DNA from: a phage
DNA: 64,000 nt
NCBI GenBank assembly: GCA_021683455.1
Contig: GCA_021683455.1_3051.1
Reading direction: 5' to 3' (one strand)
Shown here: positions 1 to 4,311 of the stretch, in pieces
Position numbering within the stretch: the first letter of the stretch is position 1
Layout: every line of letters begins with the position of its first letter
Translations under genes and position numbers: made by a program
Notes under the pieces: generated by a model
Told to the model about the DNA's origin: nothing
Database searches by the model: none
The model's input: the letters and a program-made list of their open reading frames with translations, nothing else

Positions 1-1
1 T

Positions 2-1285
2 GGCTATAAAGCCTGGATTGACCCACAAATTAACGAAAAAGAAGAATTATCAAGAAAAGATTTTGATGAATGGCTTTCTAAATTAGAAATCTATTCAGGA
101 AATAAAAGAATTGAACCACACTGGTATCAAAAAGATGCAGTGTTCGAAGGATTAGTTAATCGTCGTAGAATTCTTAATCTTCCAACATCTGCAGGTAAAT
201 CTTTAATTCAGGCTCTGCTTGCGCGATATTATTTGGAAAATTATGAAGGTAAAATTCTTATCATTGTTCCAACAACTGCTCTAACAACTCAGATGGCTGA
301 TGATTTCGTTGACTATCGTTTATTCAGTCATGCAATGATAAAGAAAATCGGTGGTGGAGCATCAAAAGATGATAAATATAAAAATGATGCACCAGTCGTT
401 GTTGGTACATGGCAAACTGTAGTAAAACAACCAAAAGAATGGTTCTCACAGTTTGGAATGATGATGAATGATGAATGTCATCTTGCTACAGGAAAAAGTA
501 TTTCATCTATCATATCAGGTTTAAATAACTGTATGTTCAAATTTGGTCTATCTGGTTCATTACGTGATGGCAAAGCCAATATCATGCAGTATGTTGGAAT
601 GTTTGGCGAAATATTTAAGCCAGTAACGACTTCTAAGTTAATGGAAGATGGACAAGTAACTGAGCTAAAAATTAATAGTATTTTTCTTCGTTATCCTGAT
701 GAGTTCACTACTAAATTAAAGGGAAAAACTTACCAAGAAGAAATAAAAATTATTACGGGGCTTAGTAAAAGAAATAAATGGATCGCTAAATTAGCTATTA
801 AGCTTGCGCAAAAAGATGAAAACGCTTTTGTCATGTTTAAACATGTATCGCACGGTAAAGCTATTTTCGATTTAATTAAAAATGAATACGATAAAGTTTA
901 TTACGTATCAGGGGAAGTTGATACCGAAACCCGCAATATAATGAAAACCTTAGCTGAAAATGGTAAAGGAATAATTATAGTAGCTAGTTATGGTGTATTT
1001 TCTACTGGTATTTCAGTTAAAAATCTGCATCACGTTGTTTTAGCGCACGGTGTTAAATCAAAAATCATTGTATTACAAACAATCGGTCGTGTATTACGTA
1101 AGCATGGTTCTAAGACAATAGCAACTGTCTGGGACCTCATAGATGACGCGGGCGTAGTTTCTAAATCAAAAACATCTTCTAAAAAATACTCGCATTTAAA
1201 CTATCTTTTAAAACATGGACTTGATCGTATTCAGCGTTATGCTGATGAAAAGTTTAATTATGTGATGAAAGAGGTTAAACTTTGA
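2..1285 (+). CDS. uvsW: UvsW RNA-DNA/DNA-DNA helicase, 5-prime partial (N-terminus upstream of window)
   Basis: Frame open from position 2 (..EPHWYQKDAVFEGLV..); helicase motifs LPTSAGKS and NDECH; matches T4 UvsW as recalled; stop TGA 1283-1285. Confidence 0.9.
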   Translation, partial: GYKAWIDPQINEKEELSRKDFDEWLSKLEIYSGNKRIEPHWYQKDAVFEGLVNRRRILNLPTSAGKSLIQALLARYYLENYEGKILIIVPTTALTTQMADDFVDYRLFSHAMIKKIGGGASKDDKYKNDAPVVVGTWQTVVKQPKEWFSQFGMMMNDECHLATGKSISSIISGLNNCMFKFGLSGSLRDGKANIMQYVGMFGEIFKPVTTSKLMEDGQVTELKINSIFLRYPDEFTTKLKGKTYQEEIKIITGLSKRNKWIAKLAIKLAQKDENAFVMFKHVSHGKAIFDLIKNEYDKVYYVSGEVDTETRNIMKTLAENGKGIIIVASYGVFSTGISVKNLHHVVLAHGVKSKIIVLQTIGRVLRKHGSKTIATVWDLIDDAGVVSKSKTSSKKYSHLNYLLKHGLDRIQRYADEKFNYVMKEVKL

Positions 1286-1974
1286 ATTATAAATTAATAT
1301 ATGATAATTTAATTAATAGAGCCCAGAATCGGGCTCGCCTTAATGGATACACTGAAACACATCATATAATTCCTAGATGTATGGGTGGTACAAATGATAA
1401 GTGTAATTTAGTAGAACTAACGGCTGAAGAACATTTTATAGCCCATAAACTTTTAGCTAAAATTCATCCAAACCATTACGGTATAATTAAAGCTGTTATA
1501 TGTATGGGGATGAATTCAAATACTCATGAAAGACATGTTAATAAATCTTACGCATGGGAACGTCGTAAAATGGCAGAACTTCAATCCGGCGAAGGTAATC
1601 CATTTTACGGAAAACACCATACGGAAGAACATAAACAATATATGTCAAAACTCATGAAAAGTCGTCCAATTACATGGGGAAATAAAATTAGTAAAACTAA
1701 AAGAATGAACCCAACGAAATGGACTGAAGAAGCTAAAAGATTACATTCAATCAATCAATCGGGTAAAAATAACGGCATGTATGGAAGGAAACATTCTGCT
1801 AAATCTATTCAGAAAATTAAAGATAACATGCCAGATAATTCAGGAGCTAATAACCCAGCTGCTAAACCTATAGAAGTAAATGGTGTTAAATATAAATGTA
1901 TGAAAGATGCTTCTAAAGCTACTGGATTATCAATGTACAAACTAAGAATACTTAGAAAAACAGTTAATTTATAA
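1282..1974 (+). CDS. HNH-family homing endonuclease (Mob-like) with NUMOD3-type repeats
   Basis: HNH motif HHIIPRCMGG..N..EEHFIAH; repeats GKHHTEEHKQYMSK and GRKHSAKSIQKIK; only in-frame start is TTG at 1282 overlapping the uvsW stop, with AAGAGG at 1269-1274. Confidence 0.8.
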   Translation: MNYKLIYDNLINRAQNRARLNGYTETHHIIPRCMGGTNDKCNLVELTAEEHFIAHKLLAKIHPNHYGIIKAVICMGMNSNTHERHVNKSYAWERRKMAELQSGEGNPFYGKHHTEEHKQYMSKLMKSRPITWGNKISKTKRMNPTKWTEEAKRLHSINQSGKNNGMYGRKHSAKSIQKIKDNMPDNSGANNPAAKPIEVNGVKYKCMKDASKATGLSMYKLRILRKTVNL

Positions 1975-1986
1975 GGGCTTCGGCCC
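1975..1986. terminator. GGGC-UUCG-GCCC stem-loop between HNH gene and uvsW.1 (terminator or RNA-stability hairpin)
   Basis: Perfect 4-bp GC stem with UUCG tetraloop, directly followed by SD GGAG and the uvsW.1 ATG. Confidence 0.45.
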
Positions 1987-1999
1987 TTTGGAGAAAAAG

Positions 2000-2233
2000 A
2001 TGTTACTAGAATTTAAACAATTTCTTTATGAAGCTTCTATTGATGAATTTATGGGTAAAATTGCCTCTTGTCAAACATTAGAAGGTTTAGAAGAACTTGA
2101 AGCTTATTATAAGAAAAGAGTCAAAGAAACTGAATTAAAAGATACTGATGACATCTCTGTGAGAGATGCTTTGGCAGGAAAAAGAGCTGAATTAGAAGAT
2201 TCAGACGATGATGAAGTAGAAGAAAGCTTTTAA
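2000..2233 (+). CDS. uvsW.1: UvsW.1 small acidic protein
   Basis: 77-aa ORF MLLEFKQFLYEASIDEF..; track start at 1988 is a TTG; ATG at 2000 has SD GGAG 6 nt upstream. Confidence 0.8.
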   Translation: MLLEFKQFLYEASIDEFMGKIASCQTLEGLEELEAYYKKRVKETELKDTDDISVRDALAGKRAELEDSDDDEVEESF

Positions 2234-2490: not shown

Positions 2491-2579
2491 CCCCATCTTA
2501 AAGCGCATTTCTTGTACACGCTTTAAACATGCTTCCATTTCTGCTAAAAGTCTAAATACTTCTTTATAATTTGTCATAT

Positions 2580-2807
2580 TTACCCCATATCTCTCATATG
2601 CATATCAATGCCCATATCTTTAGAATAAAAATATTCATCAAGATATCCGGCAAATTTTCCTTTAATATAAAGGACATCTTCACCACACGGGTGGTCGGCC
2701 AGGATACGAATATCCTGACGCTTAAGATTATGCTTTTTCATTAAGAATTGAATTTCCGTTTCAAATTCTTCTTCATAATTAAAAGCATCATCAATGCTAT
2801 ATCTCAT
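2580..2807 (-). CDS. Hypothetical protein (75 aa; uvsY.-1 position)
   Basis: ORF immediately downstream of uvsY, start overlaps uvsY stop. Confidence 0.6.
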   Translation of the reverse strand: MRYSIDDAFNYEEEFETEIQFLMKKHNLKRQDIRILADHPCGEDVLYIKGKFAGYLDEYFYSKDMGIDMHMRDMG

Positions 2808-3220
2808 TATTTTCCAGCCTCAAATGCTCGCATGTCTTGAATATGCTTAATAGCAAATCCACGTGATTTAATAGCATCAAGAGCTCCGCTACAGAAATCC
2901 AATAAAATCCCCCAATATTGTAACGAGGTATCAACCTTTAAAACATCCTTATCAGCTGATAGAACTGTTTTCATTTCTGATTTCTCGTAACGATCCATAC
3001 TAAATTCATCACCATCTCCTCGTCCCGAGTAGTAATCTAATTTAGCTTTAAGAGCAACTTTTTTCTGTGCTTCAATTCTAAGCATTTCCTTTTTAATACT
3101 TGAATGCTTATTAAGCCATTTACTATATAACATCACATTATTAGCTGCTTCATACTGTAATTTAGTCGAATCTATAAACACATCTTTCTTCAATTCTTCT
3201 TGAAGATCTTCTAATCTCAT
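2807..3220 (-). CDS. uvsY: UvsY recombination mediator
   Basis: 137-aa ORF MRLEDLQEELKKDVFIDSTKLQYEAANN..; matches T4 UvsY length and sequence as recalled. Confidence 0.9.
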   Translation of the reverse strand: MRLEDLQEELKKDVFIDSTKLQYEAANNVMLYSKWLNKHSSIKKEMLRIEAQKKVALKAKLDYYSGRGDGDEFSMDRYEKSEMKTVLSADKDVLKVDTSLQYWGILLDFCSGALDAIKSRGFAIKHIQDMRAFEAGK

Positions 3221-3258
3221 ATTGTTCTCTATTCAATTGTTATTGGATGGACTTAGAT

Positions 3259-3290
3259 TCATTATACCACGTTTTAACGTGAAGCATTAT
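3259..3290 (-). promoter_or_regulatory. Candidate MotA-dependent middle promoter for uvsY
   Basis: Minus strand ATGCTTCA (MotA-box-like) about 12 nt upstream of TATAAT. Confidence 0.45.
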
Positions 3291-3685
3291 ACCCTATTAC
3301 TGGAAGCCAGTTGCAGTTTTATCTGCTCAATATCATCAGGGTTATCGATGACTGAAAAGCGTATTTCTACTATCAGAGTATAATCATCATAAACGGGTAT
3401 CACATTAACTGCTAATTTATCAATACGTGGCTCATAGTTTCTTACTGCGCTTTCAATGTTACGCTCAACCGTGTCAGCAGTAAGAGGAGTCATATTCTCA
3501 AAAAGTTGGTCAGATAAATCACATCCAAATTCAGGGTCAAACGGTCTTGAACCTTTTCTTGTTGTAATAATTCCTAAAAGACTATTTTTAATTGACCTTA
3601 ATCCAAGTGATCTTGAAACGTCTTTGTTCCAATCCATTTTCATCTCTGGGTCAATATCAGAATAAAGCTTATTAATATTTGCCAT
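3287..3685 (-). CDS. 25: Baseplate wedge subunit gp25
   Basis: 132-aa [22 protein letters not shown]..; T4 gp25 length and sequence. Confidence 0.9.
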   Translation of the reverse strand: MANINKLYSDIDPEMKMDWNKDVSRSLGLRSIKNSLLGIITTRKGSRPFDPEFGCDLSDQLFENMTPLTADTVERNIESAVRNYEPRIDKLAVNVIPVYDDYTLIVEIRFSVIDNPDDIEQIKLQLASSNRV

Positions 3686-4311
3686 TACAATAGCTCAAAG
3701 AATTCTTTGAGTCCTCTTATTACATGAGCGTGAGTTTTTCCACACTCTGGACATTTAATTGGAACAGCCAAATAAACAGTAGGCTTTAAAAGCATATCTT
3801 TTATAGCTACAATATCTGACTCTGTGATGATAGAATATAAATCTTCCAATTCTTTTTCATTTAAGTCTTCAACTGGAATGCTTTCCCCGTTAGCGTGAAT
3901 CGTTTCTATACATGATACTATCATGTGGGCTATATTTTTATCATCAAAAATTTTAGGGTAATGGAATTTAATTTTAATGTCACCCAGTGTATACCAGAGG
4001 TCTTCTGGTGCATCTATTTGTGTATGTAATAGATTTATATGGGTTGGTATTTCAGTTCCACAGGTGCACTTCCAGGAGTTTTCGTGATTAACTTCACCAA
4101 GAGAATGTGCCCATAAATGAATCAATAATAGTTCTGATTCTTGGCGGTTTAAATCTTTTGCATTTGTACAGTCTTTGATTAGCTTTTTAACAATTGCTTC
4201 TACAGAACCATTATTTTTGGCAGTAATAAGTTCTAGATATTCTTTAAGCGTGAATGCGCGACAATTGATTATTTTAGAACCAACTCTCACATCAAATTTG
4301 TATTCATACAT
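3685..4311 (-). CDS. 26: Baseplate hub subunit gp26
   Basis: 208-aa ORF; T4 gp26 length and position. Confidence 0.85.

Follow-up and report, generated by a model that had tools for sequence, protein, structure and literature searches.

A Putative Mob-Type HNH Homing Endonuclease Gene Seated within the Last Codons of uvsW in a T-Even Phage

Mob enzymes of phage T4 have been described to nick DNA, and homing is accompanied by the co-conversion of flanking sequences (review PMC2988022). MobE nicks a target located in the gene next to it and shows high-frequency inheritance, and the overlap of mobE with the nrdA stop codon is suggestive of translational coupling (PMC2988022). The free-standing endonuclease genes of T4 start with AUG, with the exception of mobA, which starts with GUG (PMC2988022). 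In a phage DNA stretch of 64,000 nucleotides (NCBI GenBank assembly GCA_021683455.1, contig GCA_021683455.1_3051.1; hereafter, the window), an HNH endonuclease gene had been noticed at the uvsW/uvsW.1 junction by a sequence-only reading. The window opens within uvsW, the 3' 427 codons of which (1..1285, plus strand, open from the window edge, stop codon TGA at 1283–1285) encode part of the phage repair helicase, recognized by the Pfam families ResIII, DEAD, and Helicase_C. This gene is followed by an intact ORF of 230 codons with a TTG start (1282..1974, plus strand; program-made ORF list), and by uvsW.1 (2000..2233, plus strand, 77 aa; Pfam UvsW-1, PF11637, E 5e-29). The ORF 1282..1974 was annotated as a Mob-type HNH endonuclease of 230 aa, based on the ORF list, Pfam, PHROG 655, and BLASTP.

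Pfam detected two stretches of NUMOD3 (PF07460, E 7.6e-14) in the nuclease ORF, a weak match to the I-TevI DNA-binding domain, and an HNH match remaining below the threshold (16.2 bits versus a cut-off of 21.4). In the family alignment, comprising 43 sequences, the residues H28, N42, H51, and H55 were invariant, and the corresponding profile matched the HNH cores of McrA, a group II intron maturase, and Cas8-HNH; furthermore, the nuclease tail matched the I-TevI DNA-binding domain (1i3j/1t2t, E 9.7e-7, family profile). As deduced from invariant columns and the profile alignment, the predicted HNH catalytic core, featuring the conserved residues His28, Asn42, and His51, extends over aa 23–55 (1348..1446, plus strand; YTETHHIIPRCMGGTNDKCNLVELTAEEHFIAH). 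It is followed by NUMOD3 repeat 1 (aa 94–122; 1561..1647, plus strand; Pfam PF07460), and by NUMOD3 repeat 2 together with the I-TevI-like DNA-binding module (aa 157–216; 1750..1929, plus strand). The sequence-only reading had described a 230-aa HNH protein with NUMOD3-like repeats, and the intact ORF, both NUMOD3 matches, and HNH residues that are invariant among the homologues rather than degenerate bear this description out.

The nuclease protein matched PHROG 655 ‘homing endonuclease’ (E 4e-60) and, in BLASTP searches, T4 MobE (51% identity, residues 1–103, E 1e-31), MobD (57%, E 4e-25), MobB (44%, E 1e-25), MobC (43%, E 5e-19), and MobA (62% over 21 aa). The identities of 43–57% to MobB–E cover only the N-terminal 71–122 residues, i.e., the nuclease domain, which is homologous; the sequence-only reading had suggested this comparison with the Mob proteins. 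I-TevIII, named alongside them, gave no similarity in the comparison with its truncated 97-aa T4 remnant (E 2.1). An identical copy of the protein exists in public data, where it belongs to a cluster of 65, and a literature search on the gene retrieved no paper. The gene is free-standing, as no Rfam intron was found and the ORF takes up all of the 689 bp inserted between the body of uvsW and uvsW.1. The reading of 1282–1974 as a Mob-type free-standing HNH homing endonuclease gene is supported by these sequence comparisons.

The 3' end of uvsW reads AAA CTT TGA (stop 1283–1285) and shares a TTGA overlap with the nuclease TTG at 1282–1284. A start further upstream is not possible because of an in-frame TAA at 1276–1278, and an in-frame ATG follows only at codon 34 (1381–1383), past His27/His28 of the HNH motif. 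The triplets TTG AAT TAT align with ATG AAT TAT (Met1, MNY) of every T4 Mob protein, and the N-terminus MNYKLIYDNLI is shared from residue 1 with MobE, MobD, and MobB. In nuclease orthologues at the same junction of other genera, the homologous start codon is TTG, ATG, or GTG. With the upstream TAA and the alignment to Met1 of the Mob proteins, the TTG at 1282 is supported as the probable nuclease start, as proposed before. The motif AAGAGG (1269–1274) precedes it by 7 nt, the 8 nt given previously differing by counting convention only. The low divergence of the carriers is sufficient to account for their common TTG, which, therefore, provides no evidence of selection for a weak start. An RNA hairpin hiding the Shine-Dalgarno sequence and the TTG was not substantiated: a 51-nt segment folded with −6.7 kcal/mol (z −2.8), and its 91-nt context folded no better than shuffles. 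Sigma-70-like and terminator-like sites for the nuclease gene were at or below chance, and the exact late-promoter box TATAAATA was absent in or upstream of the nuclease ORF on the plus strand. A perfect 11-nt inverted repeat was observed at the ends of the ORF (1287–1297 and 1964–1974); it was rejected as a meaningful feature, being expected approximately by chance in AT-rich DNA (rough estimate), having native uvsW sequence as its right arm, and not being conserved in phage SP18.

Alignments of filled versus empty sites of the T4 type delimited an insertion of 689 bp (1271..1959, plus strand), the boundary of which is ambiguous by a shared AAA. The insert brings a recoded uvsW end, AAA GAG GTT AAA CTT TGA (KEVKL*; 1268..1285, plus strand), which carries the Shine-Dalgarno sequence AAGAGG as well as the TTG and replaces the native AAA ACA GTT AAT TTA TAA (KTVNL*). 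The native end, identical to the T4 uvsW terminus, is located at 1957..1974 (plus strand), where it now encodes the final five codons and the stop of the nuclease ORF. The adjacent native uvsW/uvsW.1 spacer (1975..1999, plus strand) matches OZ035787, a resequenced T4 record, without a difference and contains a GGGC-UUCG-GCCC hairpin (1975–1986), folding with −9.5 kcal/mol and no better than shuffles, and the GGAG Shine-Dalgarno sequence of uvsW.1 (1990–1993). Hence, the insert sits within the last five codons of uvsW and not in intergenic DNA. The earlier statement of an insertion between uvsW and uvsW.1 holds insofar as T4 possesses no ORF there, but its site has to be moved into the uvsW coding sequence. 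An ancestral UvsW–UvsW.1 fusion split by the nuclease was also considered and rejected, since in a limited search 75 out of 75 UvsW.1 homologues were free-standing (~52–96 aa) and none was fused to a helicase. The 587-aa UvsW of the T4 RefSeq record represents a known sequencing error.

Divergence from T4 was found on the left side of the insert. Over positions 1–1125, 22 out of 1125 nt differed from T4 uvsW (~98% identical), compared to 17 out of 90 nt in the final 90 nt of the gene (81% identical) and none out of 277 nt downstream of the insert (1975–2251). The amino-acid changes common to all carriers within these final 90 nt are only T>E and N>K, with I>L being private to the window. The tract 1198..1267 (plus strand) contains ten substitutions, namely nine silent third-position changes and the window-private exchange of Ile to Leu at 1220; in the base-by-base alignment, the nine silent changes were shared by 3 out of 3 loci with the HNH gene and by no empty-site locus. 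In the region 1120–1285, 49 carriers were 98–100% identical, and the other Tequatrovirus records showed 73–78%. The left-only divergence looks like a one-sided co-conversion tract comprising ~90–135 nt of uvsW, and 1198..1267 is proposed to represent the co-conversion tract and a candidate target or immunity region. As to the donor of the imported tract, no sampled genus was closer than 68–71 out of 90 nt. A hypervariable uvsW patch (1150..1192, plus strand), where the divergence is densest and base alignment revealed 24 out of 43 nt differing from T4 (VKPKSANTKKKYV -> VVSKSKTSSKKYS), was also found in four HNH-less phages (LH2 and OES_C-1/2/3). The patch is, therefore, not strictly linked to the nuclease gene, and part of the seemingly linked uvsW divergence is ordinary hypervariability.

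The nuclease ORF is not ubiquitous in T-even phages, but sporadically present at a conserved uvsW/uvsW.1 locus. An empty junction of the T4 type occurred in 450 out of 500 matching phage records, T4 and T2 included, versus a filled junction in 49 out of ~500 Tequatrovirus records (T6, PST, HY03, and others), and these carriers span many species of Escherichia, Yersinia, Shigella, and Salmonella phages. Pattern scans of IMG/VR retrieved only one contig with a filled and two contigs with an empty junction, too few to be informative. Orthologues with 57–70% identity occupy the uvsW/uvsW.1 junction in Gaprivervirus SP18, Jiaodavirus KLB2, and Moonvirus NM4.3, and Gaprivervirus P479 harbors another, MobD-like HNH gene at the same junction (30% identical to the window nuclease over 275 aa). 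In Tequatrovirus, Gaprivervirus, and Jiaodavirus, the nuclease start and the uvsW stop overlap as NTGA, and the nuclease ORF ends in the UvsW C-terminal codons of the respective genus (KTVNL*, IKQVEI*, and NL*, respectively). Non-AUG nuclease starts were represented by UUG in two genera and GUG in one.

In our view, 1282–1974 is quite probably a functional free-standing Mob (HNH) homing endonuclease gene, which would be coupled to uvsW and home into the uvsW 3' end of phages lacking it. This view draws on the family match and the start codon, the distribution, the purifying selection acting on the ORF (see below), and the flanking sequences. The gene has no promoter of its own and would be transcribed together with uvsW; presumably, termination–reinitiation at the UUGA overlap, aided by the insert-borne AAGAGG, would result in coupled translation at a low level. 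The protein combines an N-terminal HNH (beta-beta-alpha-metal) nuclease with a NUMOD3/I-TevI-like DNA-binding tail and, in a mixed infection, would most likely introduce a one-strand nick into the DNA of the gene-less phage, at the 3' end of uvsW or at its junction with uvsW.1. Both the location of the target and nicking rather than double-strand cleavage are inferred here, the latter by analogy with MobA, MobE, and I-HmuI. Recombinational repair would then copy the 689-bp cassette along with ~90–135 nt of adjacent donor uvsW into the recipient. Protection of the carrier itself is proposed to result from the recoding of its uvsW 3' end (silent changes and KEVKL*) together with the interruption of its junction. 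Both neighbours are left intact: uvsW receives a replacement terminus from the insert, and the nuclease ORF extends across the native terminus of uvsW, its stop codon, and the hairpin, with the translation signals of uvsW.1 untouched.

All 49 carriers could go back to one invasion, with vertical descent and general recombination thereafter, so that the polymorphism alone is no proof of ongoing homing. The nuclease may be a domesticated or ‘resident’ enzyme that entered once and was kept for the benefit of the phage (competitor exclusion, degradation of foreign DNA) rather than for homing, its presence or absence reflecting one gain and ordinary recombination or loss. The left flank common to all carriers, being 98–100% identical, fits a single origin, and HNH-less recombinants possessing part of the carrier haplotype exist (LH2, OES_C). 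Moreover, the nuclease ORF is under strong purifying selection: it was intact in 8 out of 8 carriers examined, which differed by ~14–21 synonymous versus 3–5 non-synonymous changes (pN/pS 0.04–0.09, ~0.05). However, purifying selection is also expected for an actively homing gene, and the imported flank is one-sided, as break-initiated conversion would predict. The exact junction is occupied by related genes in three other genera, each joined to the uvsW terminus of its genus, which requires repeated site-specific acquisition. Domestication is regarded as distinctly improbable.

Inactivity of the gene, either as a decaying pseudogene or with a product initiated at the internal ATG (codon 34) instead of the TTG, was judged to be very improbable. 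TTG starts are indeed rare in T-even phages, T4 contains a defective mobA and a defective I-TevIII, and the ORF or its TTG start is unannotated in some records. Nevertheless, full length and the low pN/pS (~0.05) in all eight ORFs include the codons before Met34, a start at Met34 would remove His27/His28, and the residues MNYKLIYDNLI are conserved with MobE, MobD, and MobB, the orthologues featuring ATG or GTG at the homologous codon.

It is hardly conceivable that the endonuclease is intron-encoded, as implied by the GenBank label ‘group I intron endonuclease’ in phages G28, G8, and G2540-3 and by a weak TIGR01453 (grpIintron_endo) match, or fused to UvsW by a −1 frameshift, as its −1 frame relative to uvsW might suggest, because this match (30 bits versus a cut-off of 56.05) is restricted to NUMOD3 and the DNA-binding tail, no Rfam intron or other RNA family was detected in 800–2600, a ribozyme would find no space in the 689-bp insert, which is entirely taken up by the ORF, uvsW and uvsW.1 form separate ORFs also where the site is empty, and the frameshift is rejected by an in-frame TAA two codons before the TTG and the absence of a slippery heptamer.

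Homing into the uvsW 3' end may be part of a wider pattern, which is put forward tentatively and is, as a whole, rather unlikely to hold. The uvsW terminus would be a cross-genus hot spot entered ‘seamlessly’ by at least two Mob lineages, each insertion duplicating or recoding the last uvsW codons and the nuclease borrowing the C-terminus and stop of the host gene. NTGA overlaps would join the nuclease gene to uvsW and, in some genera, also to uvsW.1; non-AUG starts would act as a selected attenuator, and the silent-substitution tract at 1198–1285 would mark the recognition site. If true, the targets of free-standing endonucleases could be predicted from sequence only.

By itself, the window gene adds another member to the homing endonuclease genes of T-even phages, and public records, e.g., RefSeq T6 NC_054907, already carry this label. 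Since the classical phage T6 contains it, whereas T2 and T4 do not, it could be used in standard crosses to probe homing and marker exclusion around uvsW, as well as the question of how HNH enzymes lead from a nick to recombination. Judging from the one-sided recoded tract, the likely target lies within ~135 bp, and the locus represents a clean natural case of a nuclease gene inside a coding sequence with neither neighbour damaged. Furthermore, the analysis corrects misleading labels in public records, namely ‘group I intron endonuclease’, ‘mobD’, and ‘uvsW-A/uvsW-B split helicase’.

Compared to known systems, the window nuclease has its best T4 match in MobE, sharing the MNY... N-terminus and the motif HHIIPRCMGG...NLV.LTA.EHF.AH. 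Like the window gene, mobE (between nrdA and nrdB) is promoterless and its start overlaps the upstream stop (UAAUGA in mobE, UUGA here). In contrast, MobE comprises 141 aa, lacks NUMOD3 and the I-TevI-like tail, starts with AUG, and resides at another locus with another target (nrdB), whereas the window gene is located inside the uvsW 3' end and uses its last codons. MobB, MobC, and MobD of T4 are likewise free-standing and sporadic and possess a homologous N-terminal nuclease domain, but their C-terminal DNA-binding regions are unrelated. Accordingly, the GenBank names ‘mobD’ or ‘MobE’ given to the gene in PST and ACG-C40 do not indicate orthology; the true MobD-like protein of the uvsW/uvsW.1 junction is that of phage P479. 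The nicking enzymes I-HmuI and I-BasI of Bacillus phages share the modular layout of HNH, NUMOD-type linkers, and a small C-terminal DNA-binding module; however, they are intron-encoded, and no significant sequence or fold match to I-HmuI was obtained for the window nuclease, which is free-standing. The I-TevI nuclease belongs to the GIY-YIG type, in contrast to the HNH nuclease of the window. SegE resembles the window nuclease as a free-standing homing endonuclease having uvsW as neighbour and target (PMC2988022), but is an experimentally characterised member of the GIY-YIG family encoded on the 5' side of uvsW. The segE gene is located upstream of uvsW in T4, T6, and PST, and in T6 and PST uvsW is flanked by both segE and the HNH gene.

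The nuclease ORF, a Mob-type HNH gene at window positions 1282-1974 (plus strand), appeared in a mechanical ORF listing with 230 codons and a TTG start, the latter overlapping, as TTGA, the stop codon (1283-1285) of the 3' part of the UvsW helicase gene uvsW (plus strand, 427 codons, ending AAA CTT TGA). Both features had been described in a sequence-only reading and were confirmed, and the AAGAGG motif noted there ahead of the TTG was found at 1269-1274, with a spacing of 7 nt in our analysis. A start further upstream is excluded because of an in-frame TAA at 1276-1278, and the first in-frame ATG after the TTG, at codon 34, lies 3' of the nuclease motif's His-His pair. The T4 Mob proteins all begin with MNY (ATG AAT TAT) and the window ORF reads TTG AAT TAT, so that its TTG aligns with their Met1. 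A GC-rich hairpin (GAGCCC-AGAATC-GGGCTC, 1319-1336) corresponds to codons 13-18; the scanner called it terminator-like on the minus strand only, and no U-tract follows it on the plus strand. For T4 mobE, a weak intrinsic terminator was reported in the 5' coding region (PMC2988022).

The HNH assignment with NUMOD3-like repeats was likewise borne out. In Pfam searches NUMOD3 was found twice (E 7.6e-14), the HNH match stayed below threshold and the match to the I-TevI DNA-binding domain was weak, while PHROG 655 ('homing endonuclease') matched with E 4e-60. In the BLASTP comparison suggested by the sequence-only reading, the N-terminal nuclease domain was related to T4 MobE (51% identity, aa 1-103, E 1e-31), MobD (57%, aa 1-71), MobB (44%), and MobC (43%), and no similarity was found to I-TevIII, of which only the T4 remnant was compared (E 2.1). 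Residues H28, N42, H51, and H55 are invariant rather than degenerate in an alignment of 43 homologues, the profile of which matched the HNH cores of McrA (E 9e-4), a group II intron maturase, and Cas8-HNH, as well as the I-TevI DNA-binding domain (E 9.7e-7). The HNH catalytic motif is intact. The AlphaFold model of the product was confident (pLDDT 88.6); whole-chain fold searches with it returned no significant match.

Downstream, uvsW.1 follows (2000-2233, plus strand, 77 codons; Pfam PF11637, E 5e-29). The proposed location between uvsW and uvsW.1 was correct as to the neighbours, but alignments of filled and empty junctions placed the 689-bp insert (1271-1959) within the last five uvsW codons. 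The empty site reads ATG AAA ACA GTT AAT TTA TAA-GGGCTTCGGCCC-...GGAG...ATG(uvsW.1), and the window's uvsW terminates with ATG AAA GAG GTT AAA CTT TGA (KEVKL*), a stretch that comes with the insert and holds both the GAGG of the Shine-Dalgarno sequence and the nuclease TTG. The native uvsW end, AAA ACA GTT AAT TTA TAA, forms the last five codons and the stop of the nuclease ORF (1957-1974), 3' of which the hairpin and the uvsW.1 signals are unaltered. A perfect 11-nt inverted repeat lies at both ORF ends (1287-1297 and 1964-1974; TTATAAATTAA and TTAATTTATAA); its right arm is native uvsW sequence, it is not kept in phage SP18, and by a rough estimate it is at about chance level in AT-rich DNA.

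The window region is 99% identical to T6, vB_EcoM-G28, PST, and other Tequatrovirus genomes. The T6 annotation lists the ORF as T6ORF179 with the same TTG start ('homing endonuclease' in RefSeq), and in PST it is named 'mobD/MobE'. T4 is devoid of it: in resequenced T4 and in T2, a 25-nt spacer separates uvsW from uvsW.1, the direct succession given for T4 in the sequence-only reading. Of 500 records matching a 201-nt probe across the empty T4 junction, 450 cover it without interruption. The filled left junction was present in 49 records (RefSeq/GenBank duplicates included), which belong to many named species of Escherichia, Yersinia, Shigella, and Salmonella phage. Therefore, the gene is sporadic (roughly 10%) and not ubiquitous.

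Public annotation of the locus is uneven. The T4 RefSeq record (NC_000866.4, 1678-3441) still carries a fused 587-aa UvsW owing to a known old sequencing error: its junction (about 3177-3190) reads AATTTAATAAGCTTCGG, where resequenced T4 (OZ035787) and relatives read AATTTATAAGGGCTTCGG. This error masks the uvsW stop and uvsW.1, and spreads names such as 'DNA helicase (x2)' and 'uvsW-A/uvsW-B' elsewhere. The T6 record MH550421 (2376-2442) is one nucleotide shorter than the window at window position 839 or so, with the result that uvsW is annotated as two CDSs, 'uvsW' and 'uvsW-B'; this 1-nt deletion may be either an error of sequencing or a mutation of the lab strain. In the window, unlike that record, the uvsW frame is open throughout. 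Furthermore, segE, a GIY-YIG homing endonuclease gene targeting uvsW, lies directly 5' of uvsW in T6 and PST (659-1276), a locus upstream of the window's left edge, so that uvsW is flanked there on both sides by homing endonuclease genes, each of a different family.

The same junction is occupied in other genera. In SP18 (Gaprivervirus), a 57% identical protein starts with TTG at an ATT TGA overlap and ends with the phage's own UvsW end, IKQVEI*; the public record (2497-3192) starts it internally (200 aa), missing the TTG. KLB2 (Jiaodavirus) has an ATG start and an NL* end recreating the ATGA overlap with uvsW.1 of the empty Mineola site; in its public record (about 880-2440), no uvsW CDS is annotated 5' of the HNH gene. 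In NM4.3 (Moonvirus), the gene starts with GTG and ends with KLRKLR*, its stop overlapping the uvsW.1 ATG, with no clear copy of the UvsW end. In P479 (Gaprivervirus, 3105-3890), the occupant is another, MobD-like HNH gene, whose 261-aa product shares 30% identity with T4 MobD over its full length; it has an ATG start on a CTATGA overlap and its host's IKQVEI* end. The insertion logic, comprising overlap with the uvsW stop and a borrowed UvsW end, recurs in other genera. Because of these occupants, at least two Mob lineages are represented at the uvsW junction across four genera, a recurrence that argues for repeated site-specific acquisition.

The flanks of the insert differ markedly. To the right, no mismatch to T4 was found over 277 nt. 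To the left, 22 mismatches to T4 uvsW occur in 1-1125 (none in 854-1125), 24 of 43 positions differ in 1150-1192, and 1198-1264 has ten substitutions (nine silent) ahead of the recoded terminus. Over the last 90 nt of uvsW, 73 positions are identical to T4, a distance similar to that of other genera (68-71/90), and the only protein changes are T>E and N>K together with a window-specific I>L. The left flank is 98-100% identical among the 49 carriers, compared with 73-78% in other Tequatrovirus records. The 1150-1192 patch, a hypervariable or recombining segment, is shared by four phages that lack the HNH gene (LH2 and OES_C-1/2/3) and have T4-like downstream sequence and junction; these are either carrier x non-carrier recombinants or the patch is an older polymorphism. 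Only the 1198-1285 tract is strictly linked to the nuclease gene. Recurrent occupancy of one site and a one-sided divergent flank are documented at the sequence level, and such a foreign-looking, mostly silent tract beside the gene is the trace expected of co-conversion starting from a cut in the gene upstream.

In eight genomes chosen across the diversity of the 49 carriers, the 693-nt ORF was intact throughout, with identical Shine-Dalgarno sequence and TTG; in three examined records with one junction mismatch, this was a silent TAT>TAC at codon 7. Pairwise differences comprised 14-21 synonymous and 3-5 non-synonymous changes (pN/pS 0.04-0.09), pointing to strong purifying selection rather than decay. 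The comparisons demonstrate that the Mob-type HNH gene is intact, where it starts, that it is under purifying selection, and that it is polymorphic for presence or absence, and they support the homing-endonuclease interpretation, extended here by the within-gene, end-borrowing insertion, the cross-genus recurrence, and a candidate target tract. That the gene is instead a domesticated resident nuclease seems unlikely. An untranslated or decaying remnant is considerably less probable, contradicted by the pN/pS values and by conservation at the N-terminus. A nuclease encoded in an intron, or a frameshift fusion, is scarcely credible, given a TIGR01453 (grpIintron_endo) match of only 30 bits against a cut-off of 56.05, no RNA family detected at the locus, and the in-frame TAA 5' of the TTG.

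No promoter-like or terminator-like signals above chance were detected at the gene, nor an exact late-promoter box nearby on the plus strand; a small, weak hairpin can pair the Shine-Dalgarno sequence with the TTG. In the simplest reading, the homing endonuclease cassette would be promoterless and read from uvsW transcripts, with ribosomes reinitiating at UUGA in the way put forward for mobE, where the overlap is UAAUGA (PMC2988022). T4 free-standing endonuclease genes use AUG in all cases but mobA (GUG) (PMC2988022); the UUG (window, SP18) and GUG (NM4.3) starts are unusual and compatible with attenuation, and TTG conservation among closely related carriers is no proof of selection for it. 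Further downstream, a stem-loop (GGCCC...GGGCC, 2243-2266; -15.1 kcal/mol, z -2.6) between convergent uvsW.1 and uvsY.-2 matches the bidirectional terminator reported as conserved 3' of uvsW.1 in T4-like phages (PMC1524935).

From family knowledge, the predicted enzyme would nick the HNH-less uvsW 3' end or junction, as MobA, MobE, and I-HmuI nick their DNA (PMC2988022), and subsequent repair would copy the cassette together with about 90-135 nt of uvsW. The mostly silent tract beside the insert would also make the carrier's own allele resistant; flanking co-conversion and resistance of the carrier allele are both known properties of T-even free-standing endonucleases (PMC2988022). Many public genomes, T6 among them, already label the gene a homing endonuclease, and a literature search turned up no paper on it. 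The gene is an uncharacterised representative of a kind that is well known.
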